From NCBI GenBank assembly GCA_046351515.1, contig JAXLYJ010000005.1, forward strand, positions 50,892 to 114,891: a stretch of DNA of 64,000 nucleotides. Reading direction: 5' to 3'. Made by a program: the position numbers and the translations under genes. This document shows, in pieces, positions 1-64,000 of this stretch (position 1 is its first letter; each line of letters starts with the position of its first letter). A model generated the notes under the pieces. That model made no database searches. It was not told the origin of the DNA and saw only the letters and a list, made by a program, of their open reading frames with translations. Source of the DNA: Polyangiales bacterium. Its GTDB lineage: Bacteria; Myxococcota_A; Polyangia; Polyangiales; Ga0077539.

Positions 1-1380
1 CTGGTGTACGCGACGATGGCGCTGTCTCCGTTCGCGAGCCTGCAGCCCTCGACGCGCGGCTCGCTGAGCCAGCTGCTGCTCGCCGTCCCGCGCTCGGCGA
101 ACGGGACGCTCCAGCTCGCGCGCGCCGTCGCGCCGTCGATCGAGAGCGCTCCCGCATAGAGCACTCCGACGCGCGGGCCAGCGTTGCTGGCGGCGTCTGC
201 GCGCGCGCCTGCGTCGTTCGCGGCGCTCGTCACGCTCGCGTCCTGGCTCGCGCCTGCGTCGGTGCTGCTGGCGCTGCTCGGCGCAGGGCGCTCGCCGAGC
301 GCGATCACGACGTCGCCGATCACCCAGCCGCCGCCGCGGCGATTTGAAATCGTGTGCGCAGAAACAAGCTGGCTCTGCCGCGCCTCATCGAGCGCGCCCT
401 CTGCGGTCCTCGCGCGGACCGAGACGGTGAGCTCGGGGCGCGGATCGTTGAAGGACAAGAGCGCGACGCTCTGCTGCGAGACGTGGCCGCCGACGATCGC
501 TTCGCCAATCGAGAGCTGCGGCTCGAGGTAGCCGTGCGTGCTCGGGTCGTTGCCGTTCGCGCGGCCAGAGTAGAGCGCGGGTTGGCCATCGTCGGCGCTG
601 CCGAGCCACGGGGGGCGAACGAAATCCGCGGGGCGCGTGCGGCGGCAGTCGAACTGCGAGAGGCCCTGCGCGCCGCCGTCGTTGGCGAACGTGCACACCC
701 GTCGTTCGCTCAGCCCGAAGAGCACGCGCAGCGTCGAAGACTGAAGCGCGTCCTGCGCGAGCGCCTTGGCGTTGTCGGGCCCCGCGAGCACCGCGTCGAG
801 CAGCGGAGCGCTCGCAGGCTGCGCCTGCGCGGGGGCGCGGCGATGCTGCCCGTCGATCGGCCGGGCGGCAGCTGCGCTTGCGAGACCGCGGCCCACAGCT
901 CGTCGAGGTACTTGCGACGATCTTCGCGCCCGGTGTGAAGCTGGCCCGATTCGAGGTCCGTCGCCGCTTGCGAGACGATCATCGCGAGGATGCGATGCCC
1001 GCGGTCGTCGCTCTTGGAGTCGAACAGCGCGCGGGTCACACGCTCGCGAACGTCGCGCAGCGGTAGGGCCACTGCGAGCGCCGCTCGGCCGCCGGCAATC
1101 GCGCGACGCTCGTGGGCTGTCCGAGCTCGATCCGCCGCGCGGTGCGCGCGATCTGACCGAGCTCGGTCTCGCGCGGAACGAGGCATCGAGACAAATCCGC
1201 CCACGCGTCGGCCGCGCGCTGCAGCTGCTCGGTCTTGCGCTGCGTGGCGTTGCGGTTGTTGAGCGTGTAGGCGCCCGCGACGGCCAGGACGCCGACCGCG
1301 ACGGCCACGAGGGTCTTGGCAGAAGGGCCCGTGCGGACGGGTTCGAGGTCCAGGTCGTTCGACGAGTCGTTGTCGCTCAT
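1..1380 (-). CDS. hypothetical membrane-anchored protein; its 3' end runs off the window start; frame broken several times
   Basis: ATG at 1380 is followed by one TM-like helix (TLVAVAVGVLAVAGAYTL) in ORF 1036..1380. The coding-like (non Arg-rich) translation continues in other minus-strand frames (710..1486, then down to nt 1). No recognisable family. Confidence 0.3.
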
Positions 1381-1558
1381 GGTGGGGCTCGCGGAGGGAC
1401 ACCGGGGTCGTGGGGATGTTCCCGAAGCGCGCGGCAGAGTGCGTCGCGCGCTCGTTGGCGTACCTGTCGAGTCGGCTCAGGGTCAACGACGCGCCGTCGA
1501 ATCAACGCGCGCGAACGCGCGGCGGAGCACGGACGAACGCGTGGCGACTGACCAGCGG

Positions 1559-2956
1559 TCAGCCTTTGTTTTTTCTCGCAGAAATGCGCGCGATGGCCTC
1601 GTGCGCCGCCGCCTCGACCCGCGCCTTCGCCGGCGCCCCCACGAGGTCGCGCCGCTCGACCGCGCGCTCGGGCTCGAGGACCGGAAAGATCCCTTCGTCG
1701 AACGCCGCGTGCTCTTCGCGGTACACGCTCAGCGGGAGGCTCGGCAGGTCCGTCTTCTGCTCGATCGCCCGCGCCACGAGCCGCCCTGCGACCGCGTGCG
1801 CCTCTCGAAACGCGACGCCCTTCTCGACGAGGTAGTCGGCGACCTCCGTCGCGTTGACGAAGCCCGCGTCGAGCGCCCGCCGCATGCGATCCGCGTTGAA
1901 CCGCATGGCGAGCACCACGCGCTCGAGCACCTCGAGGCACATCGAGACCTGCTTGACCGCGTCGAACACCGGAGGCTTGTCCTCTTGGAGATCGCGGTTG
2001 TACCCGAGCGGAAGCCCCTTGAGCGTGACGAGCAACGCCATCAGGTCGCCGACGACGCGGCCCGTCTTTCCGCGGACGACCTCCGCGACGTCGGGGTTCT
2101 TCTTCTGCGGCATCATCGACGAGCCGGTCGTGTGCGCGTCGGCCATCTCGACGAAGGCGAACTCTTGCGTGCTCCAGAGCACGAGCTCCTCTGCGAGCCT
2201 CGACAAGTGCGTCTGCGTGATCGCGAGCGCGGCGAGCAGCTCCGCGAGAAAATCTCGGTCCCCCGTCGCGTCGATCGAGTTGCGCATCGGGCGATCGAAG
2301 CCCAGCGACTTCGCGGTGCGCTCTCGGTCGAGCTTGAACGTCGTGCCCGCCACCGCGCCCGATCCCAACGGCGACTCGTTGAGCCGCTTGCGGCAATCGC
2401 TCAGCCGTCCGTGATCTCGGTCGAGCATCTCGACGTACGCGAGCAAGTGATGCGAGAGGCGCGAGGGCTGCGCGCGCTGCAAGTGCGTGTACGCAGGCAT
2501 GAGCACGTCGAGCTGCTCGGCCGCGCGCTGGGCGAGGGCGAGGGCCAGCGAGTCCACCAGCGCGGCGACGCGGTCGCACGCGTCGCGCGACCAAAGGCGC
2601 AGGTCCGTCGCGACCTGATCGTTGCGCGAGCGGCCGGTGTGCAGGCGAGCGCCCGCGGTTCCGATGCGCTCGGTGAGCGTGGCCTCGACGTTCATGTGGA
2701 CGTCTTCGCGCGCCGGATCGAAGTGAAACGCGCCCTTGCCGAGCTCGTCCTTGATCGCTCCGAGCCCCGCCGTGATCGCGTCGCGCTCTTGCTCGGTGAG
2801 CACGCCGATCGCGCAGAGCATCTCGGCGTGCGCGATCGAACCGCGGACGTCGACCTCGCCGAGGTGCTTGTCGACCTCGACGCTGACGAGAAAATTCGAC
2901 GCGACCTCGTCGAGGTCTTCCGTGAACCTGCCGCCCCAAGCCTTGTGCGTGGACAT
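1559..2956 (-). CDS. argH: argininosuccinate lyase
   Basis: 465-aa ORF with full-length similarity to the ArgH/fumarase-II lyase family. Contains the signature region GSSMMPQKKNPD and the N-terminus MSTHKAWGGRF, typical of ArgH. Confidence 0.95.
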   Translation of the reverse strand: MSTHKAWGGRFTEDLDEVASNFLVSVEVDKHLGEVDVRGSIAHAEMLCAIGVLTEQERDAITAGLGAIKDELGKGAFHFDPAREDVHMNVEATLTERIGTAGARLHTGRSRNDQVATDLRLWSRDACDRVAALVDSLALALAQRAAEQLDVLMPAYTHLQRAQPSRLSHHLLAYVEMLDRDHGRLSDCRKRLNESPLGSGAVAGTTFKLDRERTAKSLGFDRPMRNSIDATGDRDFLAELLAALAITQTHLSRLAEELVLWSTQEFAFVEMADAHTTGSSMMPQKKNPDVAEVVRGKTGRVVGDLMALLVTLKGLPLGYNRDLQEDKPPVFDAVKQVSMCLEVLERVVLAMRFNADRMRRALDAGFVNATEVADYLVEKGVAFREAHAVAGRLVARAIEQKTDLPSLPLSVYREEHAAFDEGIFPVLEPERAVERRDLVGAPAKARVEAAAHEAIARISARKNKG

Positions 2957-2989: not shown

Positions 2990-5027
2990 TTATTCGAGTC
3001 GCGCTTCGAGGTCGTACGCGCCCGTGTTGTTGCGATCGAAGCCGTCGACGATGATCGAGTACGCGCCCGGCTCGACGTCGAGCTGCGCGCGCGCGCGATG
3101 TCCTGCGCGTTTTCGAGCGCGCACGCCAGCTCGGTGCCTTGCCGCTCGCACACGCGCCGAACGCTCAGCACCGCGTCGAAGCTCCGCCCGCGAAGCTCGA
3201 CCACGAGCCGCCCTCGTCGATTGACGTTCACCGTGTGCACGCGCTCGCCGCTGCGCGCGCCGTGGCCGCACGAGGCCTGCAGTCGATCGATCCGCCCCAC
3301 GGTCGTCCCGCTCGTGCGAACCGCGAGGGGCAACGGCAGCGCCTCGCGGCACGCTGACTCCACGGGCTCGGCGTCGAGCGCCTCGAGGGTGAACGCGAAC
3401 TGCCCAAAATCATTGGGCGTCGCGCCGTCGACCACGAGAAAGTGCGTCCCCGCGGGCAGCAGCGCGTCGACCATCGTCCCGCGCGCGCACGCAAACTCGC
3501 CCACCGGCGCCGAGCCCGTCGCCGCGCAGCCGCGCACGAATCCGAGGCCCACCGTCGCGTCCGAGTTCACGATGCCTTCGGCCGCGAGCGTCGCGCGCAC
3601 GAGCGCCCTGCGCGGGAGCGTGAAGCGAAACATCTGATCGGGGCCGTTGCCCCCGCACGTAAGCGAGATGTCGTCGCGCGCGGCGAAGGTGTCTCCCTCG
3701 GTCTTCTGCGACAGGTTGATGTGCGGCGCGTCCGCGCAGCGATCGCCGCTCACGCCCGAACCCTCCGCCGGAGCGCTCTCGACCGCGAGCGTAAACGCCC
3801 CGTGCGCGTCGGCGCTGTAGCCATCGACGGTGACCGCGTAGCGACCGGCTTGCAGCGTCCGCGCGACGCGCGCGTGAAAGCGATCGTCGGCGTCGTCGTT
3901 GCACACGACCTCGGACTCGGGGTCCGCGCACGCCGAGCGAATGTACACGCCGGTGTCCCACCGCCCCTCGCTCTCGACGGTGACCCGCACGCGCGACGGC
4001 TGCGCGAGCGCGAGCGCGTACGTCACGTCCGGCGCAGGAAACCGGCTCGACGCGCAAGACCCGTGCAGCACGTCCGCGAGGCCCTCGGTCGTCCCGTGCA
4101 TCACCACGCCAGGCTCGATCGATCGCGCGCGCGCGCACACGTCCGCGGCCTCGGGCGACTCGGCCTCGTTGGTGGTGAGCGTGTACGCCCCGCGCGATCC
4201 GTCTCCGACCGCCTCGACGAACACGTAGTAGCGCCCTGGATCGAGCGTCGTGTCGATGCGCGCAGGGCCTCCGTCGCGCGGAACCGAGCACTCGAGCGTC
4301 GGTCCGTCGAAGGTGTTCGCGCCCGCGCCTCCGCCCGCGCACGAGCGGCGAACATAGAGCGCGCGCTGTCCTTCGCCCGTCGCCACGAGCTGCACGCGCT
4401 GCCGACGCTCGACCTCGATCACGTGAACGACGTCGGGGTTGCGCCCCGCGGCGCAGGTCGCTCCCGCGTTGTCCTGCGCGCTCACGAGCGAGCCCGTCAG
4501 CGCGTCCGCCGAGCTCGAGCGGCAGCGGATTGACGCACGTCCCGCGGGTCGAGCTCTCACCCGAGCGCTCGTCGTCGCGGTCCCACAGCGCGTACGCGTA
4601 CGCGCCTTGGCCGTCGCGCGCCGAGACCGCGAAGCGAAACGTCCCCGAGCCCGCCGCGCAATAGCCCACGCTCGCAGCGCGCGCTGGTCAAGCTCTGCAC
4701 CGCGCGCACGCCGTCCGGCGTGTAGAGCGCCGCTTCGAGGTTCACGCCGTCCGAGGCGCCGAGCGCGACGATGCGGTAGCAGTGCCCCGCGCGCAGCCGA
4801 GCGAGGTGCGAGCGCGTCTGGCCTCGACGGATCGTCGCGTCTTCCGTGGCGCCGACCGGCGCGTATCCGAGCGAGTCCATCGTCGCCCGGTGCCCAGGCA
4901 GGACGGTGCTCGTCTTGGGCGCGGAGGGCGCGCACGCCGGATGCGCCCAAGCCAACGCACACACAATCAACAGCGACGTACGTACGGTGCGCGCAGCGGC
5001 CAGCGCGCTCGTCCACGGAGGCGCCAT
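2990..5027 (-). CDS. secreted protein with about five tandem PPC-like (pre-peptidase C-terminal) beta-sandwich domains; frame broken at ~4650 and ~3350
   Basis: Signal peptide MAPPWTSALAAARTVRTSLLIVCALAWAHPACA in ORF 4557..5027. Repeated ~100-aa units ending GRYYVFVEAVG..GAYTL, GRYAVTVDGYS..GAFTL, GTHFLVVDGAT..FAFTL and GAYSIIVDGFD..GAYDLEARLE span three frames (4557..5027, 2692..5016, 2990..3352). The flanks of the 774-aa ORF are Arg-rich junk. Confidence 0.55.
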
Positions 5028-5031: not shown

Positions 5032-6703
5032 TCAGTAGTACTGCTTGCGCTTGGCGCTCGAGAGGATGCCCATCATCTCGCGGTACTTCGCGATGGTCCT
5101 GCGCGCGATGATGATCTTCGACTGCTCTTCGAGCTTCTTGGCGATCGCCTCGTCCGAGAGCGGGTTCTTTGGGTCTTCTTCCGCGATGATCTTCTTGATC
5201 GCCTGCTTGACCGACTCGCTCGCGATGTCCTCGTCGGCCATGCGTCGGATCGAGCTGTTGAAGAAGTATTTGAGCTCGAAGATCCCGCGCGGCGTGTGGA
5301 CGTACTTGTTCGTCGTGACGCGCGAGATCGTGCTCTCGTGCATCCCGACGGTCTCGGCCACGTCGCGAAGGATCATGGGCTTGAGGTACTCGACGCCCTT
5401 CTCGAAGAACTCGTGCTGCTTCTCGACGATGCACTGCGTGACCTTGACGATCGTGCGCTGCCGCTGGTCGAGCGAGCGGACAAACCACCGCGCCGAGGCG
5501 AGCTTGTTCTGCACGAACTCCTTGGCCTTCGGGTCCTTCATCAACGCCTGCGCCTGCTCGACGTTGATCTTGAGCTTCGGCAGCCCGTCGTCGTTCGTCG
5601 TGACGGCGTACCCGTCCGAGGTCTTCACGACGTACACGTCGGGCGAGACGTACGGAGGATCTTCAGTGCTGAAGTTGCGACCCGGTCGCGGCTCGAGCGT
5701 GCCGATCAGCTTCGAGGCGTCGTACACGTCGTTGAGGTCGCACTTGAGGTCTTTCGCGATCGCCTGAAAATTGCGGCGCTCGATGTGCTGCAGGTGCTTG
5801 TCGATCACCTGCCAGACGATGGTCTCTTCGTCGTAGCCGAACGCCTCGGCTTGCACGAGCAAGCACTCGCGCAGGTCGCGTGAGGCGACGCCGACAGGGT
5901 CGAGCGACTGGATCAACCGCAGGACTTCTTCGGCGTCTTCGGGGTGCAGCCCGCTTCGCGCGCGAGGTCTTCGAGCGTGATCGTCTGCGCGCGCGGGACT
6001 TCTCGTTGGCGGCGATGTCCGCGGCCGAGAGGTTGGTGACCGGCTCTTCGGCCTTCTTCTTCTTCTTTTTGCCGTGCTCTTCGTCGTCGTCCGACTCGCT
6101 CGGCTCGTCCCACTGCGAGTGGCTCTCTTCGCGGTCGGCCTTCTTCTTCTTCTCGCGCTCCTTCTCGGGAGCGTCGCCGCGAAGCCGCAAGTAGCCGTTG
6201 TCGTCGAGGTTGTGCACGACGAGCATCGCGAAGGTCATCTCTTCGTTCGTGAGGTTCGAGAGACGAAGCTGGTCCATCAAGTGATCGGAGAGCGACGAGC
6301 GCGAGCTCAGCGTCGCTTCGAGCGAGGGCAGCTCTTCGCTCGACAAGCGGCCGCCGCCCGAGGGGACCGGCGCTTGATTGGCGTACGACTCGAGAAAGCG
6401 CTCCCAATACTCTTCTTGCTTGCTCTCGCTCGCCGCGCGCTTCTCTTCGTGGTTGTGCACCGCCTGCTCGCGGCGCTCTTCGAGCGCGGCGATGTCGTCG
6501 ATCGTCGGGGTCGAGTCGGCGTCCTTCGCGCGCGCCTCGCCCTCGGCAGCCTCGTCGAGAATCGGGTTCTCCGTGAGCTCTTCACGGATCTGATCGATCA
6601 GCTCGAGCCGAGACAGCTGGAGCAGTTTGATCGCCTGCTGCAGCTGCGGCGTCATCACGAGCTGCTGCGACATGTTCAGGCCGAGGCCGAGCTTCCCTTC
6701 CAT
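5032..6703 (-). CDS. rpoN: RNA polymerase sigma-54 factor
   Basis: N-terminal region I MEGKLGLGLNMSQQLVMTPQLQQAIKLLQLSRLEL, an acidic region II, then LIQSLDPVGVASRDLRECLLVQ and the C-terminal RpoN box ARRTIAKYREMMGI. Two single-base deletions near 5945 and 5990 split the gene between ORFs 5032..5916, 5913..6407 and 5663..7504. Confidence 0.9.
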
Positions 6704-6794
6704 CGCTGCACCCAATGATCGACGTGGCGTTTGACCGCGAAAAACTCCCCTGGCGACAACACATCGTTTGGGGACGACCGAAACATAAACGCTC

Positions 6795-6840: not shown

Positions 6841-9492
6841 TCAGCGCGCGAACGTGACCGGCGGCGCGACGTAATCGCTGAGCGACTCGCGCGCGACGGC
6901 GATCGCCGATCGAACGAGGTCGTCTGCTCCTTCGTCGCGACGCTCGACGCGCAGCACCGCTTGCTCGAGCGCTGCGAACGGGTCGCTGGCGATCACGACG
7001 AACGGCGGGCTCCCGCTCGCCGCGTCGCGCGCACCTTCGACCGCGGCGTGATCGATGGATTGAACGACCAGCGCCGTCACGAGCGCGGCGCTCTCTTCGC
7101 GCACGACGCCGGACTCGACCGCGAGCCGCTCGAGCTCGACGAGCCCGCCGCGCAGCTCGCCGAGCACCCGCTGACGAACACGCCAGGTGACCTCCGCCGC
7201 CGCGTCCGTCGCGAGCACGTTCGCGTCCGCCGCCCGCGCGCGATCGCGGCGCTCGAGCCCGCGCAGCTGCTCGATGAGCGTCCCGGCCACCTCGCGGCGC
7301 ACCGCAGAGAGAACGCCCGGAAGCTGCTCTCGCAACACGGCGATCATCGCGAGCAGCGCGTCGCGGCGCTCGTCGGTGCGTCGCGCGCGCTCGGCGGACT
7401 CGTCGAGCGCGCGCTCGGCCTCGGCGAGCACTTGCGCCGTCCGCCTCGCCACGCGCAGCTGCTTCCACGCGGCGCGCTGCGCGACGAGGTGCTCGTCGAT
7501 CCACGCGAGCAGCGGCGCGAAGCCCGAGGTCACGAGCTTGAGCTTCGCCGCTTGTTTTTCAGCGTCCGATCGCGTCGGATCCTCGATCACGAGCTGCGCG
7601 GCGAGCGCTTCTTTCGCGCTCACCGAGGTCACGAGCGGCGCGAGGTCTTTGAACGCCTCGCGCACGACGTTGGCCAGCGGCGTGAGCTCGTTGGCCTTCA
7701 CGAAGTCGATCTTGTTGAGCACGCCGAGCACGGGAAGCCCGCCGTCGGCAGCCTCTTGAAGAGGGCCGGTCTCGCTCATTTTTCCGGCCTGGCGCGCGTC
7801 GAAGAGCCACAGCGCGATGTCGGCCATCGCGAACGCCGAGCGCACCGCTTTCTCGTGCGCCGCGTCGCCGGCGTTGAAGCCCGGCGTGTCGATCAGCTCG
7901 ACGCGCGCAAGCCTCGGCGCGGGCCAGTTGACCTCGACGTAGTCCACTCCGGCTCCGCTCTCGCGGGCTCGCTCCACGACCGATGGCGCCGCGTCGATCG
8001 TGCACACGACGGACGACCCTCGGCCGTCGACAACTCGCGCCGAGCGCTCTCCGTGCCGCAGCCAGTGAACGTGCGCCGTCGTCGGAAGCACGCCCATCGG
8101 CGAGACCGTCGCGCCCACCAGGGCGTTGAGAAACGTGGATTTTCCCGCGCTGAACTCGCCGAGCAGCGCCACCCGCAGCGGCTCGTCGAGCTCTCGCCTC
8201 CGCACGCGCAGCTCGCGCTCGACCGCCGTGAGCGCCGCGCTGTTGCGCGCGAGCAGCGCGAGGTCATCGAGCAGGTCCGCCAGCTTGTGATCCCATCGCG
8301 CTCGAAGCAGCGCGCGGTATCGCTGCGCGGCGATCGAGGCCGTTCGCTCATCGGAGAACGCTGGCCCGAGCGCGCTCTGCGCGGCGATCGGGTCGAGGTC
8401 GGTCCGCTCGGGCTTCGCTTCAGCGAGCGCCTTCACCGCAGCAGAACCCAGGCGATGGGGCGCTTCATTGGCCCACCGCTCGGCCACCGCGGGCGCCGCC
8501 GCGAGCGTCGTCTCGATCGCCAGCGGCCAGAGCGCGTCGGGGATGCCCGCGCCGTTCACCGCCTCGAGCGCGCTCACGGCCGAGCGGTCTCCAGCGCCGA
8601 GCGCCACGAGCGCGCGGGTGAGCTCGGCGAGCGCTCCTTGCGCCTCGGCCACGAAGCGCTCGAGCGCAGTCGAGTCCTTCGCGCGATACAGCGCGAGCGT
8701 GAGCGCGGCGATCGCGTCGTGCTCTCCGACGAGCCACGCGCGGCGCAAGAGCTTGATCGCGAGCGGGAGGTTGTTGAGCGCGAGGGCGACCTCGCCTGCC
8801 TCGCGGTTGAGCGCGCCGTTGGCCGCGTCGAGCGTCGCGACCGCGCGCTCGATCGCCCGCGTGCACTGCCCCTGATCGCCGCGCGCGAGCGCGTCTCGCG
8901 CGAGCAAGAGCCACGCTGCGCCGAGCTTCGGATCGACCACCGTGGCGCTTCGCGCGAGCTGCAGCGCGCCTGCCGATCCTCCCTTCGCCAGCAGCGATCG
9001 AGCGGCGTTGAGCAGGTGCTTCGCGGTGCTCGGGTCGCGGTCGCTCGTGCGTGCGCGCGCTTGCGTGGCGAGCTCGATCGCGCGTCGCTCGTCGCCGGTC
9101 GCCGCGGCGAACTCGCACATGCGCGCGAGCGAGAGCGGAGGCAGCACGCGCTCGCGCGAGACGTCCGCGAGCGTCGAGAGCGCCGCAGCGGCGTCGCCGC
9201 GCGCGAAGAGGGCGTCGGCCTTGAGCTGCGCAGCGCGGAGAAAGAGCGGAGCTGCCGCGAGGGCGTTCTCTGCGGCGCGCAGCGCCCCGTCGGGGTCTCC
9301 TGCGGCGAGCAGCGCTTCGCCGCGCTTGGCGAGGTTGGTCACCTCGTCCGACGGGGGAATGATCGAATCGAGAAAGCGCTCGACGCGTTCGAAGAGAGCC
9401 ACGGGCTTCGCGGGCGGATCCGGCACGGGCGCAGCGTACCCCTCCGTCGAACAACATTGAACCGTGCTACACACGCCGGCCGCATCGAGCAT
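6841..9492 (-). CDS. TPR-repeat protein fused to a bacterial dynamin-like GTPase domain
   Basis: The N-terminal ~430 aa are Ala/Leu-rich TPR-like helical repeats. The C-terminal half has GTPase motifs G1 GEFSAGKST, G3 DTPG and G4 NKID, with dynamin-family organisation. The true start is uncertain (ORF 6841..9558; murJ starts divergently at 9491). Confidence 0.65.
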   Translation of the reverse strand: MLDAAGVCSTVQCCSTEGYAAPVPDPPAKPVALFERVERFLDSIIPPSDEVTNLAKRGEALLAAGDPDGALRAAENALAAAPLFLRAAQLKADALFARGDAAAALSTLADVSRERVLPPLSLARMCEFAAATGDERRAIELATQARARTSDRDPSTAKHLLNAARSLLAKGGSAGALQLARSATVVDPKLGAAWLLLARDALARGDQGQCTRAIERAVATLDAANGALNREAGEVALALNNLPLAIKLLRRAWLVGEHDAIAALTLALYRAKDSTALERFVAEAQGALAELTRALVALGAGDRSAVSALEAVNGAGIPDALWPLAIETTLAAAPAVAERWANEAPHRLGSAAVKALAEAKPERTDLDPIAAQSALGPAFSDERTASIAAQRYRALLRARWDHKLADLLDDLALLARNSAALTAVERELRVRRRELDEPLRVALLGEFSAGKSTFLNALVGATVSPMGVLPTTAHVHWLRHGERSARVVDGRGSSVVCTIDAAPSVVERARESGAGVDYVEVNWPAPRLARVELIDTPGFNAGDAAHEKAVRSAFAMADIALWLFDARQAGKMSETGPLQEAADGGLPVLGVLNKIDFVKANELTPLANVVREAFKDLAPLVTSVSAKEALAAQLVIEDPTRSDAEKQAAKLKLVTSGFAPLLAWIDEHLVAQRAAWKQLRVARRTAQVLAEAERALDESAERARRTDERRDALLAMIAVLREQLPGVLSAVRREVAGTLIEQLRGLERRDRARAADANVLATDAAAEVTWRVRQRVLGELRGGLVELERLAVESGVVREESAALVTALVVQSIDHAAVEGARDAASGSPPFVVIASDPFAALEQAVLRVERRDEGADDLVRSAIAVARESLSDYVAPPVTFAR

Positions 9493-11120
9493 GGCTGAGC
9501 CCGAAACCCCCGCGACCGAAAAGCCCCAGAGCTCCGTCGCGAAGAACGCCGCGATCACCTTCGCCGACGCTCGCGTCGCGCGTGCTCGGGATGTTGCGCG
9601 AGACGCTCATCGCCGCGACGTTTCCCACGGCGATCACCGACGTGTTCTTCGTCGCGTGGCGCGTGCCGAACGCGCTTCGGGCGTTGCTCGCCGAGGGCGC
9701 CGCGAGCGCCGCGCTGGGGCCAGCGTTTTCACACGCGCTCGAGCCCGAGAAGGGGCAGAGCGAGAAGAACATCCCTCGCTTGCGCGAGGTGCTCTCGCGC
9801 GTCGGCGGCGCGGCGTTCGTGGCGCTCGCGCTCGCGACGGCGCTCGGCGTGATCTTCGCACGGCCGATCTTTCAGCTCGTCTCGCACGGGTTCAACGGCG
9901 ACACGGCGCGCTTCGAGCTCGGCGTGACGTTGCTGCGCGTGCTGTTTCCGTTCTTGTTCTTGATGGGGTGGTTCAGCCTCGGACGCACGGCGCTCGAGCG
10001 ACTGGGAGACTTCACGACGGGGTCGAAGGCGAGCGTGTTGCAGAACGTCGCCTTCGTGCTCGCGCCGTTCTTGCTCGTGCCGATCGCGCCGTACGTGGGC
10101 GTGAGCCCGATCGTGATGATGGCGGTCGCGGCGCTCATCGGCGGGCTCTTGCAGGTGTTGTATTTGCGCCCGGCGCTGCGGCGACGGGGAGTGCTCGTTC
10201 GCCCGACGTTGGCCAACGATCCCGCGCTCTCGGACGTGTCCAAGACCTTCGTCACGATGCTCTACGGGCAGCTCGTCTATCAGGCGACGGTGATGCTCTC
10301 GGCGCGGCTGCTCGCCACGCTCGAGCCCGGCAGCGCCTCGTGGAACAGCTATGCCCAGCGCCTCGCGGACATCCCTCAAGGGCTCTTCACGGTCTCGCTC
10401 GCCGGCGCCGCGGCGGCCGAAATGGAGAAGGCCGCGGTCAAGCTCGACCGCGACGCCGTCGCGCGAACGTACGAGCGAACGCTCTCGCTGAGCGCCTTCG
10501 TCGCGATCCCGGCGTGCGTGCTGCTCGCGGTGTACGCGGACGCGATCGTGCCGCTCGTCTTTGGCTACGGGCGCTTCGCGCGCGGAGAAAACGCGGCGCG
10601 CAACATGTACGAGGTCGCCCGCTCGCTGCACTGGCAGGCGATCGGCGTCGGGCTGTTCGCGTTCGTGCACCCGACCAATCGAGTGTTCTCGGCGTTCAAG
10701 CGCCGCAAGCCGATCCTGACCGCCTCGACGATCGCGCTCGTGTCCTACGCGTTCGCGGGTGTGTGGCTCGCGCGCGTCCGCGGCCACGTGGGCGTCGCGA
10801 TGGCGGGAGCGATCTCGGCCGCCGTGCAGCTCGTGGTGCTGTTGTGGCTCGTTCGCAAAGAGATCCCGTTTCGGCCCGCGAACGTCGGCGAGTCGCTCGC
10901 GAAGGTGCTCGGCGCCACCGGCGTGACCGCGCTCGCCGCGGTCGCGGCCGTTCGCTGGCTGCCGATCGCGACGAACACGATTCTGTCCAAAGCGCTCGCC
11001 GTGATCGTGGGCGGTGCGCTGCTCGTGGTGTATGCCTTGGCCGCCTGGTGGCTGCGATGCGAAGAGGCGACCGAGATCGTGCGAAGGCTCCGACGGCGAA
11101 GACGCCCGCCGGAGCCGTGA
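9491..11120 (+). CDS. murJ: lipid II flippase MurJ (MviN)
   Basis: Full-length similarity to the MurJ/MOP superfamily (RVPNALRALLAEGA..., 12-14 TM helices, ~520 aa). The N-terminus MAEPETP...AKNAAITF is in ORF 9464 and switches to ORF 9582 at ~9575 after a +/-1 indel. Confidence 0.85.
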
Positions 11121-11841
11121 AGAAATCCCCTGAAAAAAAGCCGGTCGATCCGCGAAAGACCGGCGCGAGTCCCGCGGGACCGAGCGCGGGCAAACCGCCG
11201 TCGGCGCCCAAGACCTCGGGCGATCCGTGGCTCGTGACCGCGGCCGAGTTCGTGATCGAAGCGAGGGACGCGGCGCAGCTGCCCGCTCCGACGGTGAGCG
11301 AAGTGGCGTTTGCCGGCCGAAGCAACGTGGGCAAGTCCACGCTGCTCAACGCGCTCGCGCAGCGAAAGGGCTGGCGCGGACCTCCTCGACGCCGGGGTGC
11401 ACGCGCGGGCTCATCGTGTTCGACCTGCGCGCAGCGGAAAGTCCCTTCGGCTCGTCGACCTCCCGGGCTACGGCTTCGCGCGCTCGCGGGCGCGACGAGA
11501 AGCGCGACTGGGGCGCGATGATCGAGGGCTACCTCGGGGGAGGGCGCTCGTCGCTCAAGTGCGTCGCGGTCCTCGTCGACGCTCGGCGAGGGCCCGAGGA
11601 AGAAGAGCGGCAGCTCGTGGCGTTCTTGTCGTCCGTGGGCGTTCCGTTTGTGTTCGTGGCGACCAAGCTCGACAAGCTGGCCAAGAGCGAGCGGTTCGGC
11701 GCGCTCTCCCGAATCGGCGCGGAGTTTGGCGCGCGCGTCGTCGGTGTCTCCGGCGAGAGCGGCGAAGGACGCGACGATTTGCTGCGCGTGCTGCTTCGCA
11801 TGACCGGCGACAGCGATCCTGTCCGTGCCAATCACGATTGA
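11119..11841 (+). CDS. engB: ribosome biogenesis GTP-binding protein EngB/YihA (YsxC)
   Basis: EVAFAGRSNVGKSTLLNAL (G1), LARTSSTPG.TR, LVDLPGYGFA (G3) and ATKLDKL (G4), spread over three frames (9464, 11310, 11227). The GTG at 11119 overlaps the murJ stop. The N-terminal extension is Pro/Lys-rich. Confidence 0.7.
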
Positions 11842-11993: not shown

Positions 11994-12880
11994 ATGTCGT
12001 TCGGACTGCTCGCTCCGCTCACCCTCGCAGCGCTCGCTTTTGTGACGACGTTGAGCCGTCCGCCGAGTCCGCCCGTCGTTCACTCGACGATTCGCGTGGT
12101 GGACGTGCGGCGCAGCGGCGCTCGTGGCGCGCGGCGCGAGCGTGCTCGACGCGCGCGACGCGGGAGCGTTTTCGAGCGGGCACCTTCCGGGCGCGCAGCT
12201 GTACGCCTGGTCGCTGTTCACGGGGACCGGTGCGCAGCGCGGCCGATTGCGCGCGGACCTCAGCTCGATCGCCGCCGGGCTCGCGGCGCTGGGCGTCGAT
12301 GAGTCTCGACCGACGCTGGTCTACGGCGCAGCTGGCACGGGCAACGGCGAAGAAGGGCACGCTGCGCGCGGCTGCTCGCGCTGCTGGGACACAACGACGT
12401 CGCGATGCTCGACGGCGGGATCGAAGCGTGGCGCTCTGCTGGGCGCCCTGTGGTCACCAGCGTGACCAGCGCTCGCGCGGGGCGGTTCTCGGCGCGCGTT
12501 CGTCCGGAGCCCGGGCGGACCGCGAGCTGGTCGCGTCGGGGCGCGCGCAGCTCCTCGACGTGCGAACGGCCTCTGAATTTGCAGGAACCGCGTCGGGAGC
12601 GGAGGCGCGGCGAGGCCACATTCCGGGCGCGCTTTCGATGGACTGGCGCACGGTGCTCGACGAGCGCGGCCGCGTTCGGCCGGCGCAGCGCCTGCGCGAG
12701 GCGCTCGAACACGCGGGCGTCGATGCGGGCGATCCGATCGTGCTGGTGTGCTCGAACGGCGTTCGCTCGGGCTTTGTCGCGTCGAGGCTCGCGGCGCGCG
12801 CTGTGGTTTCGGCCCGCGTGTACGACGGCGCGATGATCGAGTGGAGCGCGGACGAGACCGCGCCGCTCGCCGCCGGCTGA
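11994..12880 (+). CDS. tandem-rhodanese sulfurtransferase (SseA/thiosulfate sulfurtransferase-like), with signal-peptide-like N-terminus; four or more frameshifts
   Basis: Two rhodanese modules: VLDARDAGAFSSGHLPGAQ...PTLVYGAAG and LLDVRTASEF..GHIPGA...PIVLVCSNGVRS (catalytic Cys loop). Pieces lie in ORFs 11994, 12124, 12405 and 11981. Confidence 0.6.
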
Positions 12881-13027
12881 GCGCGGGCGCAGGCAAATCG
12901 CGCGCTGTGAAGGCAAAGTTGGTATAGGCTCCGGCCGTGCTGCGTTGCCCTCTGCGGACTCGATCTCGCGCCGGGAACTACCGAGTGCCCGCGCGACGGC
13001 GTCGCCATCGGCGACCCGACCGACTCG

Positions 13028-14583: not shown

Positions 14584-14603
14584 GCGCTTCGCCAGCGGTT
14601 GAA

Positions 14604-17555
<2,952 letters not shown>

Positions 17556-21698: not shown

Positions 21699-21785
21699 CG
21701 CTCACCCGACCTCCGTCCAACCATCGAAGGTCGGACGTACACGACGAGGTCGCGCGACAGCGAATTTTCGACGAGCTGCGCGCGC

Positions 21786-30432: not shown

Positions 30433-30434
30433 CC

Positions 30435-41845: not shown

Positions 41846-41893
41846 CGCGAGGACTATCGCTGAAAGCGTTGGGCGAAGACAGCCCGTTGCGCG

Positions 41894-47226: not shown

Positions 47227-47347
47227 AGCAAAGGCTGGTGTAACACCGAGCCCCGCGCTCGTGCCAGTGCGCCTTCGCAATTGACGAAAACCGCAGCGTC
47301 AACTCGCGACTGGCGCTGTGGCTCGACTGCGACTCACGCGCTCTCGC

Positions 47348-48807: not shown

Positions 48808-49034
48808 TGGTTTTGGAAGGGTTCGGGTCTGTCACCGTCGCGGCCTCCGCGCTCTCGTCTGCGTCGGATACTGAGTTGCGATCGCCGCAGTGACAAGGCT
48901 GCGAACGTGACGAGTGGACGTACTCTGTCTCTTCGTTGGAGCGGTCGTCACCGCGGCGATGTGGCGGGCGTTCTCTGTCCGCGCAGGCATCGCGCAGAGC
49001 GACCGACGCGAGTTGTGGTACCAAGCGCGCCGAA

Positions 49035-55003: not shown

Positions 55004-55063
55004 CGCTCGCGTTGGGTCGAGTATTTGCGCGGACGCTCGCGGATCTGATAACGGCTTCGGCGA

Positions 55064-56022
55064 TGACGGACCTCGCACGCGCGACCGCGAGCGGCGCAGA
55101 CGACTCGGTCTTCGTTGGGCTCGAGCGCGCGGGCGCCGGGGCGATGGCCTCGGTGTTTCGCGGGACGTACCTGCGCTCGGGGCGGACGGTGGCGGTGAAG
55201 CGAGTGCTTCCGGCGCTGACGCACAACGAGCACATCACGCAGATGTTCGCCGACGAGTGTCGCGTGCACTCGACGCTCGATCACCCGAAGGTGGTGCGCT
55301 ACGTCACGCACGGGCGCGACGCAGACGGAGCCTTTCTCGCGCTCGAATGGGTGGACGGGACGAGCGCTCGATCGTTTGTCGATCCCGAGCGCAAGCTGAC
55401 GACGGGCGCGGCGGTGGCGATGGCGCTCGACGTGCTCGACGCGCTCGACGCCTTGCACCGAGGGCGCGCGGCGAAGGTGGGACGCAGCGCGATTCTTCAC
55501 CGCGACATCTCTCCGGCCAACGTGCTCGTGGGGGCCGATGGCTTCGCGCGCCTCGCGGATTTCGGCCTCGCGAGGGTCTTCTCGTTCGCGCGCACCACGC
55601 CCCCGGAACCACCGCTGGAAAGCTCGGCTACCTCCTCCCGAAGTCCTCGCGGGGCGCATGCACACGACGCGCGGCGATCTGTACGCGCTCGGCGTGGTGC
55701 TCTGGGAGGTCCTCGCGGGCGAGCGCTTGATGGCGCACGTGAGCGACGCTGCAGAGCGCGCGCCAAGGCCTTTGTGATCGAGCCGCGCCGTCCGCTCGTG
55801 AGCGTTCGCCCCACGGTTTCGCCGGCGATCGCCGCGGTCATCGACAGGGCGCTCTCGCTCGATCCGGCGCAGCGCTTCGCGAGCGCCGAGGCGATGGCCA
55901 GCGCGGTTCGCGAGGCGGTCAGCCGCGACGAGTGGTCCAAGGCGCGCGATCAGCTCGCGATGGCCGCGCGCGGCGGGCACGTGCGCCGCTCGCGTCGGCG
56001 CTCGACGCGCTCGGTGAACTGA
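55064..56022 (+). CDS. Ser/Thr protein kinase (frameshifted)
   Basis: RGTYLRSGRTVAVKRV, HRDISPANVLV, DFGLARV in ORF 54169..56022. The activation segment/APE region is in the +1 frame (ORF 55257: GTTAGKLGYLLP; ORF 55538: GDLYALGVVLWEVLAGE). Confidence 0.6.
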
Positions 56023-56063: not shown

Positions 56064-57961
56064 TCACTCGTCGAGGGCGAACTCGACGCGGCCGAGCGCT
56101 CCATCGGCGCTCACCACTCGAACGCGCACCGCCTGTCCGACGGTGAAGCTTCGGCGAGCGCCCTTCATGTGCGTCTCGCGCGCGTCGAGCGAGAACGGCC
56201 CTCCTTGAATCGTGTCGATCGGGATCGTCCCTTCGACGAACGAGGCGTCGAGCTGCGCGATGATCCCAAACGATCGCAGCCGCGTGATGCGCGCAGAGAA
56301 CTTCTGCCCGACGCGATCGGCCATGTACCGCGCGAGGATCATCTTGCGACGGTCGTTTTCAGCGCGCGTCGCGCCGCGAGCGCGCTCGTTGATGTGCCGC
56401 GCGAGCGCTTCGAGCGAGGGTCTCCGAGCGACCAGTCGCGCCGTCCTCGGAGGTATTGCTTGATCGTGCGGTGCACTTCGAAGTCCGCGTACCTGCGCAA
56501 CGGCGAGGTAAAATGCAGGTAGAGCGGCGCTGCGAGCCCGAAGTGCATCGAGGGCGTGACCTGATAGCGCGCCGGTCCCAGCGAGCGCAACAGCACCGCG
56601 CGGATCGCGGGCTCGTACGGAGAGCCGTCGATCTGCGCGTCGAAGGCCGCGAGCGACAGCGGGCTCAGCTTGGTCCCGAAGCCCGCCGCGTAGCCGAAGT
56701 TCTCGGCGATCTCGGCGAACTCGATCACCGCTTCTTCGCCAGGGATCTCGTGCACGCGCAAGAGCGACGGGACGCCGCGCTCGGTGAGCCATCGCGCGAT
56801 CGCCTCGTTGGCGGCGACCATGAAGCGCTCGATCATCACGTGCGCGCTGTTGGCCTTGTGCGCCTCGACCGCGCTCGCTTGTCCTGTCGCGGGATCGACG
56901 GTGATCTTCGCCTCGTCTTGCGCGATGCGAACGCCGCCGCGGCGCGCGCGAAACGCTCCCAATCGAGCGCTCGCGGCGCGAAACCACGGCATCGACCCGC
57001 GCACCTTGTCGACCGCCGGGCTCATCGCGCCCGAGTCGAGAAACGCCGCGCACTCGTCGTAGTCGAGCCTGGCGAACGAGCGGATCACCGACTCGTACAC
57101 GTCGACCGAGCTGACGTTGCCCTCGGGGTCGATGCGCATCTCGCAGGTGAGCGTGCGGCGATCGACCTCGGGGTGCAGTGAGAGGTGTCCCGATGAGAGC
57201 TCATCGGGCAGCATCGGCAGCGTGCGTCCCGCGAGGTACGTGCTCGTCGCGCGCGCGCGCGCTTCGCGGTCGAGCGCGGTGTCCTTCTCGATGAAGTCCG
57301 ACGGGTCCGCGATCGAGACGAACAGCCGCAGCGCTCCGTCGCGGTCCGCAGGAGCACAGAGATCGCGTCGTCGATGTCGCGCGTCACGGGCGCATCGACG
57401 GTCACCGTCGGGACCGCGCGCAGATCGCGCCGTCCTTCGAGCGAGTGCGGACGGCGGGCGAGGGCCTTGGCTTGCGCGAGCGCTTCGTCGCTCCAGTCGG
57501 TGAGGATGCGGTGCCGCGCGATCACGCGCGCGCGAGCGAGGGATCTTCGCCCGATCCCGTGCGCTTCTTCAGCTCGAGGCTCTGTCCGCGGATCGTGGCG
57601 ATCACGGTCTCGCCGGGCTCGACGTTTTGCCCGCGCGTGTCCAGCGGCCAGTCCGTGTTGCTCACCTCGCGGTCGACCTTCACGAACAGGGCGCCGCGGC
57701 GCGAGACCACTTCGCCGACGAGCTCGCTGCGCGGACGCTCGTAGAGCGTGAGGTCCGTGGCGCTCCAACGGCCGTCCTCTCCGCGCACGACGCACCCGGC
57801 GACGACGTCGTCCGAGAGAAAAGGATTGAGGGCCGGCGGCGCGATGAACGCGCGCAGGATGGACTTGGACTCTCCTCGCCATCCACTTCGAGAAAGCCGA
57901 AGCCCCTTGGATTCACAACGACGCGCCCCACCACGTCGCGTCGGTCTTGCATGTCACTCAT
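56064..57961 (-). CDS. RNase II/R-family 3'-5' exoribonuclease (cold-shock/OB N-terminus, RNB catalytic domain, C-terminal S1 domain); frameshifted
   Basis: N-terminus DVVGRVVVNPRGFGFLEVDGEE (OB fold) in ORF 57680..58063. RNB signature HFGLAAPLYLHFTSPLRRYADFEVHR in ORF 56339..57214. S1-like C-terminus FTVGQAVRVRVVSADGALGRVEFALDE in ORF 56064..57053. Confidence 0.7.
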
Positions 57962-58110: not shown

Positions 58111-59360
58111 TTACGTGGGCGCCTTCACCACGCCGATCGGGACGAGCTCGGTCACCACTTCGAGCAGGTCGCTTTGCGCCGCGATCACCGCGTCGACGTC
58201 TTTGTATCCGTGGCCGCGCTCGTCGAGCACGCCCGCGGGATCGTGCGTGACCAAGGTGATTCCCTTCTCGGTCATCTCGCGGAGCATCGACGCGGTGGCG
58301 TCGCGCTTGGCCGCTTCGGTCGCGTCCTTGTCGACGCGCGCGTAGCCTCCTTGTCGCGGAAGACCTCGCCGTTCTCGTCCTTCACGTACACCTTGGGCAT
58401 CATCTGCCCGCGGGACTTCTTGCGGCCCGCGCCGTGCGACACCGACGCGTGCGAGAGCGAGCAGCCCGTGCCGCGGCACAGAAAGCTCTTGGTCTCCATC
58501 GAGCCCGGGATCGTCACGTACGCGCCCGCCGGAGCGGACACTGCACCCTTTCGATGCACGTACACGTCGCGGCCATCCCAGCGCTCTTTCGACAAGAAGT
58601 TGTGGTGCGTCTGGACCACCATCGCGACCTCGTACGGACCGAGGACGTCGCCGATCGCGCGCTCGCACGCCGCTCGGATCAGCTCTCGGTTCGCCTCTGC
58701 GTATCGCAGGCAAAACGCTTGTTCTGCGAGGTAGCCGCGGCCCTCATCGCTGTCGACCGGCAAGAACGGAAACCCCTTCGGGTAGCTCGCGCCCAGGCGC
58801 TCGCACAGCTGTTCAGCGAGCGAGTGATAGTGACCGTTGACCGCCTGACCGAGGCCGCGCGATCCCGAGTGGACCATCACCCAGAGGTTTCCTTCGGAGT
58901 CCTTCTGCAGCTCGCAGAAGTGGTTTCCGCCGCCGAGCGTTCCGAGTTGACGCGAAGCGCGCGAGGCGTTCTTCGCGACGACCGGCTCGATCGAGTCGGT
59001 GAAGGACGGCATCGCCGTCGACTCGTTGTCGTTGATGAGCTTGCAGACCGCGTCGTTCACGCGGGCCAGGATCTTCGCGGCGATCGAGGGCGAGACGACC
59101 GCTGCGCGCAGCGACGTCTTCATCAAGATCATCCCGCAGCCGATGTCGCCGGAGATCACGTCGGGCACGATCAGGTTCTCCGTTCCGAACACCGTTCCGA
59201 TCGGAACTCCCTTTCCCGCGTGAGCGTCCGCCATCAACGCGAGCTCACCGACGATCGACGGCAGCTCGGCGATGCGCTCGATCTGCTCGATGGCGTTCGC
59301 GTCGAGCTCCTGCGCGAAGATTCGAACCGTCTTTCCGTTGGGCGTCGTGTGCAGCTTCAT
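58111..59360 (-). CDS. rtcB: RNA-splicing ligase RtcB (3'-phosphate/5'-OH RNA ligase)
   Basis: MADAHAGKGVPIG, GGNHFCEL, and the HGAGR active site with its conserved His in ORF 58272..59360. After a frameshift near 58350 the C-terminus YKDVDAVIAAQSDLLEVVTELVPIGVVKAP is in ORF 58111..58713. RBS GGAGGAAC. Confidence 0.9.
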
Positions 59361-59500
59361 GGTGTTCCTCCGTCACTCGTGGGTGACGCGGAGGACAACT
59401 TCACGATGCGTGCCGAGGCCGCGGGCACAGATTCTACACATCAAAGCGAGATGCCGTATTGTTTTGGATATAGCGAAGTATTCAAATGGATAGATGCGCC

Positions 59501-60111
59501 TCAGCGCACGCGCTCGACCGCGCCGTCGCGCACTCGCAGCACGCCGTCGCACCACGCGATGAGCTCTTCATCGTGCGTGGCGACGAGCGCCCCCGACGGC
59601 CGCTCGCGCAGCTCGTCGAAGAGCGATCTGCGCGCGTCTCGATCGAGCCCGTCGCTCGGCTCATCGAGCAGCCACCACGGGGGCTCTCGACGCGCGCCAT
59701 CAACAAGTGCGCTCGCTTGCGCTGTCCCAGAGAGAGCGTTCGGTACCGCTGCGCGCCGATGAGCTCGATCGTCGCGCGCGACCGTTCGTCCTGCGGAACC
59801 TCGCTTCGACGCAGCCCCGCGCACAGCTCGACGAGCTCGTTGACCGTCAGGTGCTCGGGATACGACGGCTCTTCGGGCACGATCGCGCATCGTCGCTGAA
59901 GCTCGTCACGATCGCGCGCGAGCGAGCGCCCGTCGATCTCGACCTCGCCGCCGCCGTGGTCGATCGCTCCGATGATCGCGCGCAGCAGCGTGGACTTGCC
60001 GCTTCCGTTGGCGCCGACCACCGCGAGCAGACCGCGGGGCCACTCGAGGCTCACCGAGTCGAGCACGAGCCGATGGCCCAACCGCACAGAGAAGTCTCGC
60101 ACTCGAATCAT
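59501..60111 (-). CDS. ABC transporter ATP-binding protein (CcmA-like, ~203 aa)
   Basis: Walker A GANGSGKST, signature LSLGQRKR, Walker B WLLDEPSDGLD, H-loop ATHD; across ORF 59482..61152 (N-terminal part) and 59501..59890. The ATG overlaps the permease stop (ATGA). Confidence 0.7.
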
Positions 60112-61152
60112 CGTCGCACCGAAGCCGCCAGCGCGAGCGCGACGAGCACGCACGCCGTGACGACCGACTGAGAGGGAGTGGCCACGAGCGCGAGGATCAC
60201 CGCCGCGATCGTGCAGAGCACCGCGGCGCCGCCCGCGTCGATCTCGCGCCGCGCGCACTGCTCGACGCACATCGCGACGGCGAGCCACTGCGCAGCGAAC
60301 GCGAGCGCGGCGAGCAGCGAAGCGCGAACGCCGAGAGGGCTCGCAGCGATGCTCGCGCAGCTCGCTCCGACGAGCGACGGCAGCGCCCACGTCGCGATGC
60401 GGCCTGCGCGTCGAGCGGTGGACCGTGCGCCGGGCTGCGTCGCGAGCACGAGCGAGAGCGACTGCTCGGACTCGCGAACGACCGTGACGATCGCGGCCGA
60501 CACCGCGCCAGAGGCCACGAGCAAGAGCACCGTCGCGAGGCTCGATTGCGCGGTCGGCGCGATGCGCGTGTTGAAGACGGCGATCGTGGACAAGAGCGTC
60601 GCTGCGAGGGGAGCGCCGCGGATCGCGCGAGCGGCGACGGGGCGACGCGCGCGGCGAAGCGGAGGTGGGCGACGAGCAGGCCGCTCGGCGAGGGCGCGCT
60701 GCGCGTGGGCGCGCTTCGAGCGCGCGGGCGATCGAGCGAAACGCGAGGGTCGCGAGGGCGGCGACGAGCGCGGCGAGAAGGCCCACGAGCGCTCCTTCGC
60801 CGCGCGCGAAGAAGGCGCCGACGATCGCGTGGGGAGCGAGCGTGGGGGCGGTGAGCGTCGCGAATCGGTCGAGCGACGAGAGCGGCAGCGCGCGAACGAA
60901 CGCGAGCTCGTCGCGCTCGAGCACGCGCGCGGCGCGGACGTGCACGACGGACCACAGGGCGAGGGCGAGGGCGGCGATCGCGGGGGTCGCGCGCAGGCCG
61001 CGAGTGATGTCGCGCGCGTCGAGCCCGTTGGGGCCGAGGAGCACTGCGCCGAACACGAGCAACGCGAGCCACAGCCCAGCGAGCTTTGCGATGACGGAGC
61101 GAGCGACGATCGAGGCGAGCGTGAAGCGCGCGCGGAGCGCGGGCGAGGGCAC
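60108..61152 (-). CDS. ABC transporter permease / polytopic membrane protein (frameshifted)
   Basis: Hydrophobic multi-TM translation from the GTG/ATG at 61152 (MPSPALRARFTLASIVARSVIAKLAGLWLALLVFGAVLL...). It continues in ORF 60108..60593 (MSTIAVF...LVALALAASVRR) and is translationally coupled to the ATPase. Confidence 0.45.
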
Positions 61153-61198
61153 GGCGGAGTAACGGGCGGAGGGCGGGGAGTGTTCCGAAAGGGAAAGA

Positions 61199-61332
61199 GG
61201 TTTTGTAGAGTGAGGGGACGGTGTTCAAAAGTTCATTTGTTGGTCTCAACGCGACTCAACGGCCCCTGCCACTGAGCCAAACTGAGACCAACAAATGAAC
61301 TTTTGAACACCGTCCCCTAGCTCTACAAAACC
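61199..61332. promoter_or_regulatory. 134-bp AT-rich element: two ~50-bp near-perfect inverted repeats (48/50) around a 34-bp spacer, in the rtcR / ABC-rtcB divergent intergenic region
   Basis: Left arm 61199-61248 ggttttgtagagtgaggggacggtgttcaaaagttcatttgttggtctca. Right arm 61283-61332 is its reverse complement except tga/cta. Each arm holds GTTCA-N3-GTTCA. The spacer carries TGGCAG-N5-GTTGA on the minus strand. GC ~42% against ~70% for the window. Confidence 0.6.
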
Positions 61333-62953: not shown

Positions 62954-62960
62954 CCGCGGG

Positions 62961-64000
62961 TCAGAAAACGTGAAACGGGTCGCGGTCGCGGTCGAAATCG
63001 CGAACTCGACGCCGTGCAGCGCCTCGGCGAGGCGATCCTGAGCACGCGCAGCGTGGCGCGCTCGGAGTTCGAGTGGAGGGTCATGATGATCGTGGTGTTG
63101 GCGTTGGCGGCGCGAAGCGCGTCGTGGTGGCGCATCTCCCCGAGCACGAAGAGGTCGGCCTTCGCCCGCAGGACCGAAGAGAGCATTTCGCCGGTCGCGC
63201 CCGCGCCGACAGCGGCGGTGTGCACGGTCCTCTCGGTCGGTCCTGCGACGAGCAGGTGATCGACGCCGAGCGCGGATTTGAGCCGCGAGACGATGGTGGC
63301 GACCGAGGCGGGCTCAGTGAGCGGGCCGATGCGACCGAAGCCCTTGTGCTCGCTCACCGCGGCGAGCCGCACGAGGTCGAACGCGGGAGTCTCGTACGGG
63401 TGTGACGCTCGGTGGGCGCGAAGGACGGCGTCGAGCTTGTGCACGGGAACCAGCGTTTCGAGCCGGATTTCGGCCGCGCGCTCGAGTTGCCCTGCCTTGC
63501 CCACGACGGGGTTGGTGCTGTCGGGGGCGCCGAAGAACGTTCCCTCGCCGGGGGTTCGAAACGAGCACTGCGAGTACTCGCCGATGCGCCCTGCGCCCGC
63601 TTCGAACAGCGCGTTCGCGACGGCGTCGACGCTCTCTTGCGGGACGAAGGTGACGAGCTTGAAGTGCGTGTCCTTGGGCTGCTGCGGGTCGAGTCCCGCG
63701 CGCTTGTCGCGGTCGATCCCCACCGCGTCCGCCAGAACGTCGTTCGTCCCGCCTTCGGCCGCGTCGAGCGCGGTGTGCGGAGAGTAGATGGCGATGCGGT
63801 CTCGCACGGCGTCGAAGGCGATCGAGCCTCGCGTGACGCGCGAGACGGGCTTGAAGATCGGCGGGTGATAGGCGAGCACGGCGCTCGCCGCCATCGCGCG
63901 CGCTTGTTCGTAGACCGCCGGCGTCAGGTCGATCGCGAGCAACACTCGCGAGAGCATGGCGTCCGGGTCTCCGACGAGCAGGCCGACGTTGTCCCAGTCA
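62961..64000 (-). CDS. Nif3-family (YbgI/YqfO, dinuclear metal centre) protein; 5' end beyond window end; frameshifted near the 3' end
   Basis: WDNVGLLVGDPDAMLSRVLLAIDLT (read across the window end), AYHPPIFKP, IAIYSPHTALDAAEGGTNDVLA, MRHHDALRA...TLHSNSER match the Nif3/NGG1p-interacting-factor-3 fold. Confidence 0.65.

Follow-up and report, generated by a model that had tools for sequence, protein, structure and literature searches.

Homopolymer indels that lead to frameshifted gene calls have been documented in nanopore-only assemblies and metagenome-assembled genomes (MAGs) (Sereika et al. 2022, PMC9262707). A comparable disturbance was found in a 64-kb stretch of DNA (69% G+C) from a Polyangiales bacterium (contig JAXLYJ010000005.1, positions 50,892 to 114,891; referred to here as the window), in which about half of the genes are interrupted by changes of reading frame. 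The interruptions are almost certainly consensus indel errors, of two systematic types, in a public MAG contig, the genes of the organism itself being intact. As in nanopore-only assemblies, especially those from R9.4.1, indels prevail over substitutions, the bias towards deletion grows with homopolymer length, conserved genes are fragmented, the errors vanish in short-read-based or polished sequence, and the metagenomic contig is long (490 kb). The window differs from the nanopore homopolymer pattern in two additional features, a recurrent gain of GC in (GC)n tracts and a cluster of deletions outside homopolymers at 11.3-15.6 kb.

Length-dependent miscalling of homopolymers, with the resulting +/-1 frameshifts, is shared with 454 and Ion Torrent data. 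These flow chemistries err in both directions, GC-dinucleotide insertions are atypical of them, and a 490-kb metagenomic contig is not normally expected. Mycobacterium leprae and recently host-restricted symbionts likewise contain many genes interrupted by frameshifts, but genomes of the M. leprae type also show nonsense mutations, large deletions and relaxed constraint, and their essential genes are intact. The window, unlike these, contains no nonsense mutations, its conservation is undiminished, essential genes are broken, and the same population also has the genes in intact form.

Extent and type of the frame breaks

A frameshift-tolerant protein-to-DNA aligner was written, and the proteins of syntenic relatives, namely the Myxococcales/Polyangiales MAG contigs L001-L004, L006 and L007, served as references; L004 is the closest relative for 11.3-15.6 kb (about 91-93% DNA identity), L006 is a 95%-identical JGI contig and L007 is 81% identical. 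This frameshift-aware alignment, which an initial annotation made from the letters of the window had proposed as a check, disclosed together with Pfam profile coordinates 48 frame-breaking events in 24 of about 50 genes: 34 one-base deletions, five two-base deletions, eight two-base insertions and a single one-base insertion. No in-frame stop codon was present in any robust alignment. The intact genes (n = 26) include argH, a dynamin-like GTPase gene, murJ, the enolase gene, a 1,175-aa HSP70-like gene, serA, rtcR and a CitMHS permease gene. The event count covers the window apart from 38.8-41.9 kb and 60.1-61.2 kb, which were without a usable reference and for which codon usage suggests further frame switches.

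When the same aligner was applied to relative against relative, three events emerged from 5,766 aligned residues, the two kinase genes that carry five and three breaks in the window being free of them; this background is so low that the frame breaks must be real and far above the noise of the method. Events falling inside non-coding N-terminal extensions of stop-to-stop reference open reading frames (ORFs) were discarded (2962 in ArgH, 5000, 9471, 9567 at the MurJ start, and 12884-12950), as was a rhodanese event at 11992, which coincides with the ATG start (11995). At 69% GC, neither a GC3-only ORF filter nor a Viterbi segmentation by codon usage was clean enough to stand alone, and both were used only in support.

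The initial annotation had named a series of frame-broken genes, and the alignments and Pfam bear it out for rpoN, engB, the rhodanese gene, both kinase genes, gyrA, cstA, pspA, sspB, rtcB, the RNase II-like gene and the ABC ATPase gene. The gene at 2993-5027 on the minus strand, with three breaks, is probably the one it called the PPC protein, to which Pfam gives no match. Eleven further genes are broken beyond those it named. Its inclusion of murJ (9582-11120) was mistaken, this gene being read in one frame, collinear with three relatives and matched by Pfam over MurJ positions 8-430 of 451, and its figure of one to four switches per gene is too low, the highest number found being five (521-aa kinase).

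Indels number at least 0.8 per kb when the whole window is counted, and 1.4 per kb over the 9.2 kb that was directly verified. All eight two-base insertions in coding sequence lie inside (GC)3-6 tracts; with the intergenic case included, GC is added at 3091, 5990, 12368, 21104, 21779, 35789, 55757, 57531 and 57857, often with AG after it. Two of these sites were confirmed by Logan contigs and two by exact protein matches, removal of GC leading to exact database matches for the SPOR-domain protein and the 319-aa kinase. The addition of GC in (GC)n tracts is thus a second systematic error class beside homopolymer loss. The density of events is uneven: 11.3-15.6 kb (about 4.3 kb) contains 16 indels, most of which are not in long homopolymers, and 24-32 kb is free of them; local coverage, strain collapse or patchy polishing may account for this spread.

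Independent assemblies and dependence on run length

Four Logan contigs from three SRA runs, L005 and L008 (SRR26348422), L010 (SRR26348423) and L009 (SRR14932612), align with 9,237 bp of the window (identity 99.5-99.9%) and differ from it by 11 single-nucleotide polymorphisms (SNPs) and 13 indels. A literature search on the SRA run numbers found no paper. Eleven of the indels are single bases absent from the window, at the other two the window has a surplus GC dinucleotide, and none goes in the opposite direction, so that all 13 place the anomaly in the window. Together they explain all ten coding breaks of the aligned regions (three in sspB, two in the SPOR-domain gene, and one each in pspA, the 647-aa gene, the DUF6600 gene, rtcB and the ABC ATPase gene), nine of which had been called by the aligner; the tenth, at 59678 in the ABC ATPase gene, came from the Logan comparison and Pfam. 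The remaining three of the 13 are intergenic, a share about as expected from sequence length.

With homopolymers counted in the Logan sequence, the G/C runs shortened in the window were four of five 6-mers, four of seven 5-mers, one of 32 4-mers, one of 166 3-mers and none of the 4,883 runs of one or two bases. The indels are therefore concentrated in homopolymers at a rate that climbs with run length, and this one-directional dependence is the signature of homopolymer under-calling. They are also blind to function, both essential genes and intergenic DNA being affected, and no other signs of decay accompany them.

An intact copy of the region in the same MAG

Several intact proteins of the window are identical to NCBI proteins named 'MAG: ... 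[Polyangiales bacterium]' from a 490,825-bp contig with the locus-tag prefix U0269. Short proteins annotated on that contig are likewise encoded exactly in the window, among them the 362-aa RtcB (MFO0558161.1), the 188-aa SPOR protein (MFO0558124.1), the 644-aa protein U0269_08935 and the 486-aa protein U0269_09030. Since the identity is exact and extends to truncated proteins, the window is a piece of this deposited contig, and the frameshifts stand in the public record.

Eight out of ten intact window proteins have two NCBI accessions, one from the 490-kb contig (MFO05581xx) and another from a 109,424-bp contig (MFO05622xx-3xx) whose locus tags, U0269_30xxx, have the same prefix. NCBI locus-tag prefixes are assigned one per genome, and the frameshifted 490-kb contig and the intact 109-kb contig would accordingly belong to the same MAG. 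The U0269 MAG appears to contain the region in two copies, a sign of redundancy within the bin or of duplicated strains.

Ten window products were repaired in silico at their indels and looked up as exact sequences. From first to last residue, seven of them, covering 12 indels, match proteins of the 109-kb contig only: the SPOR-domain protein (MFO0562297.1), the 647-aa protein (MFO0562304.1), PspA (MFO0562305.1), SspB (MFO0562318.1), the 491-aa protein (MFO0562319.1), the 319-aa kinase (MFO0562326.1) and RtcB (MFO0562328.1). GyrA is intact on the 109-kb contig as well (MFO0562299.1, 884 aa), and the window product is identical to it at 882 of 884 positions apart from one deleted base. No match was returned when ArgH, enolase, HPF, GyrA and RtcR were looked up exactly in the contig index.

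Breaks in individual genes

The broken genes and the intergenic indels are, in order along the window:

3-1476, minus strand: geneA, conserved hypothetical, cut by the window start; one-base deletions near 1039 and 833, the same against L001, L002 and L003
2993-5027, minus strand: repeat-rich secreted protein, probably the PPC protein of the initial annotation; two-base deletion near 4684, one extra base near 4500, two extra bases in (GC)6 near 3091-3094
5035-6730, minus strand: rpoN; one-base deletion near 5948-5952, two extra bases (GC) in the CGCGCGCGC tract at 5984-5995
11100-11841, plus strand: engB-like GTPase; frame switch near 11364-11370, indel direction from L002 only
11995-12877, plus strand: rhodanese gene; two-base deletion at 12109, two extra bases in a GC tract near 12368, one-base deletion at 12509
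13028-14580, plus strand: Ser/Thr kinase, 521 aa in the relative; one-base deletions at 13417, 13554 and 14367, two-base deletions at 13676 and 13907
14595-15032, minus strand: hypothetical 148-aa ORF region; deletions at 14641, 14666, 14753, 14822 (two bases) and 15004
15455-15741, plus strand: hypothetical 97-aa gene (hyp97); one-base deletion at 15586
15768-16246, plus strand: hypothetical lipoprotein-like gene; one-base deletion near 16118-16122
17567-18516, plus strand: EamA transporter gene; one-base deletion at 17947
19684-20857, plus strand: DUF6600 gene; one-base deletions at 20268 and 20725 (G5 to G4; 20725 verified against Logan L009)
20894-21698, minus strand: SPOR-domain gene; one-base deletion at 21171 (6-mer to 5-mer), extra GC at 21103-21104 (Logan L009)
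21778-21779, intergenic: extra GC in a (GC)n tract (Logan comparison)
22542-25192, plus strand: gyrA; single one-base deletion at about 23441-23443
31189-33128, minus strand: TPR-like 647-aa gene; one-base deletion at 33098 (6-mer to 5-mer; Logan L008)
33147-33826, minus strand: pspA; one-base deletion at 33332 (5-mer to 4-mer; Logan comparison)
34011, intergenic: one-base (T) deletion (Logan comparison)
35057-36423, plus strand: hypothetical 456-aa gene; two extra bases in the CGCGCGCGC tract near 35787-35791
41897-44007, plus strand: cstA; one-base deletion at 42572
46609-47226, minus strand: sspB; one-base deletions at 46813 (G5 to G4), 46914 (G6 to G5) and 47035 (C5 to C4) (Logan L005)
47337-48808, minus strand: hypothetical 491-aa gene; one-base deletion at 47389
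55063-56019, plus strand: Ser/Thr kinase, 319 aa; one-base deletions at 55602 and 55634, extra GC at 55756-55757
56067-57961, minus strand: RNase II-like (RNB) gene; one-base deletions at 56421 and 57352, two extra bases near 57531 and 57857 in GC tracts, both from one 88%-identical relative as sole basis
58114-59360, minus strand: rtcB; one-base deletion at 58348 (GGG to GG; Logan L010)
59422, intergenic: one-base deletion (C4 to C3; Logan comparison)
59501-60111, minus strand: ABC ATPase gene; one-base deletion at 59678 (6-mer to 5-mer; Logan comparison and Pfam)
62967-64000, minus strand: NIF3-family gene, running off the window end; one-base deletions near 63034 and 62993, both from one 76%-identical relative as sole basis

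Pfam positions follow the change of frame closely. In engB, MMR_HSR1 positions 1-22, with the P-loop, are encoded in frame 2 and the C-terminal part of the GTPase in frame 1, and gyrA lies in two ORFs whose matches to DNA_topoisoIV adjoin (positions 1-254, then 252-431). For the intact homologue of the gene at 2993-5027, for geneA and for the genes at 38.8-41.9 kb, Pfam gave no match. The deletions in sspB coincide with the frame switches indicated by codon usage, and those in the 148-aa region were placed at identical positions against L004 and L002 and with either strand taken as coding.

For rpoN, the initial annotation had reconstructed two junctions as single-base deletions. The two strings it quoted map to 5941-5957 and 5982-5995 of the minus strand, and the reading through three frames is as it described. 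The first junction is indeed a one-base deletion. The second had been ascribed to a missing C at cgcgcgcgcagacg, where the window is two bases longer than all three relatives, which read KSRAQTIT or SRARTIT in place of the KSRARQTIT of the initial annotation. As the relatives are shorter and the same insertion, GCGCGC[GC]AG, was verified at 21104 and 21779, an excess of GC appears more likely than the loss of one C; the frame is shifted alike in both cases. Pattern scans of metagenomes for the rpoN junction gave no match.

Conservation past the breaks

Against the 95%-identical JGI relative, amino acid identity was 95.2% for intact genes; for broken genes it was 96.5% before the first break and, computed after restoration of the frame, 93.6% after it. 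The codon-usage segmentation tracks the shifted frames past the breaks. The frameshifts thus lack the combination of nonsense mutations, larger deletions and relaxed downstream constraint expected of a decaying genome, and independent sequence from this lineage does not reproduce the lesions. At variance with programmed frameshifting, the orthologues on L001-L004, L006 and L007 are encoded in a single frame.

Origin of the frame breaks

The initial annotation had attributed the breaks to indel-type assembly errors as opposed to pseudogenes, and the independent assemblies, the dependence on run length and the lack of decay signs speak for the same view. Its argument from essential genes also holds, in that gyrA and engB, usually regarded as essential, are broken, and rpoN as well. 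In such a consensus, one base and sometimes two would be dropped, chiefly in G or C runs of 4-6, and an extra GC would be added within (GC)3-6 tracts; each error would shift the reading frame, giving around half of the genes a split or truncated appearance. The cause is probably an uncorrected long-read consensus, most likely nanopore, of modest or uneven coverage. A long-read or pyrosequencing platform, as proposed initially, is plausible, and the 490-kb contig fits a long-read origin in a suggestive way.

Several points weigh against this explanation. The cluster at 11.3-15.6 kb, about a third of the events, consists mostly of deletions outside long homopolymers, and its events were called from relatives of 83-96% amino acid identity, not from sequence of the same strain; visual inspection of the non-homopolymer deletions showed no obvious GATC or CCWGG methylation-motif pattern. 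The evidence comes from assemblies and relatives, with the Logan contigs standing in as a proxy for mapped accurate reads. As there are a few SNPs (11 in 9.2 kb, and two GyrA residues), the comparison contigs may represent a very close co-occurring strain. Finally, the repaired EamA, hyp456 and hyp153 proteins were unmatched, although two of these queries began with L or V instead of M and are uninformative.

Genuine pseudogenisation, either in a decaying strain or in a mismatch-repair-deficient mutator lineage with homopolymer indels, is very improbable. The few SNPs between the window and the intact copies would allow for a distinct strain, and the indel spectra of mutators also depend on run length; but gyrA, rpoN, engB and about half of all genes are broken without a single nonsense mutation, and conservation and codon bias are kept past the breaks. 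Moreover, 80% of the G/C 6-mers are shortened and none is lengthened, against a SNP divergence of only some 0.1% that is either silent in the matched proteins or located outside them, whereas a mutator lineage would show far more substitutions than indels. Even less credence can be given to the related proposal that the 490-kb contig represents a real co-occurring hypermutator or decaying sub-strain, its G/C runs collapsed by slippage, and the 109-kb contig its intact sister strain.

Functional frame changes, by phase-variable contingency loci, programmed frameshifting or transcriptional slippage, might be considered given that slippage-prone sequence, in the form of short G/C runs or GC repeats, is present at some sites. 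These tracts are merely 3-6 nt long, however, and the sites are dispersed, in housekeeping genes as well as between genes, as many as five falling in one gene; orthologues in the six related contigs are in one frame at these sites and no conserved slippery motif is present, so that we regard this explanation as extremely unlikely. The formal symmetry of pairwise comparison, and nothing more, would permit the window to be correct and the Logan, 109-kb and JGI contigs to be erroneous. That assumption has a negligible probability, because the other versions are full-length and collinear with Pfam models and distant relatives where those of the window break, and the window stands alone against four independent data sources that are in mutual agreement. 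With essential genes broken, nonsense mutations missing, conservation unchanged, loss in runs going one way and intact copies present elsewhere, consensus error is the sole credible explanation, and the frame breaks are not a biological feature.

Consequences for the reading of the contig

The importance of the breaks is practical, not biological. ORF tracks, gene counts, pseudogene calls and domain architectures of the window are unreliable until the frames are repaired, and the same probably holds for the whole 490-kb contig. With about half of the genes affected, any ORF-based interpretation has to bridge the breaks, as the initial annotation had cautioned, and other findings made here from short, split or overlapping ORFs need to be read again against the repaired frames. 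The public record already holds truncated proteins derived from the errors, such as the 362-aa RtcB and the 188-aa SPOR protein. The intact second copy in the MAG is a ready reference for their correction.

Other observations in the window

At 38790-41890, between a 231-aa gene and cstA, about 3 kb are missing from the 95%-identical JGI contig L006. A long ORF runs on its minus strand (39612-41750) with flanking pieces, none of them matched by Pfam, and codon usage suggests frame switches near 39944 and 41473. At 59400-61300, the ABC ATPase gene and a gene upstream of it lie between rtcB and rtcR, which adjoin in the 81%-identical L007; further frame switches are possible near 60608 and 60706. 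The PTS EIIA-like gene extends 27 codons beyond the stop used in the relative (19595-19687) owing to one extra base near 19599, which may be an insertion error of a rare kind or a true difference.

At 26881-30953, a small DnaJ-domain gene comes after an HSP70-like gene of unusual length (about 1,175 aa); both are intact and conserved in the relatives. ARAGORN predicted a 97-nt tRNA-Trp inside the HSP70-like coding sequence (27570-27666, plus strand), which is probably a false positive; an Rfam scan of the window gave no match, and thus no tRNA at this position. Finally, the minus strand encodes at 6841-9558 an intact 905-aa protein that combines TPR repeats at its N terminus with a GTPase domain of the dynamin family and was found in only three GTDB species representatives in a pattern-seeded scan of close relatives.

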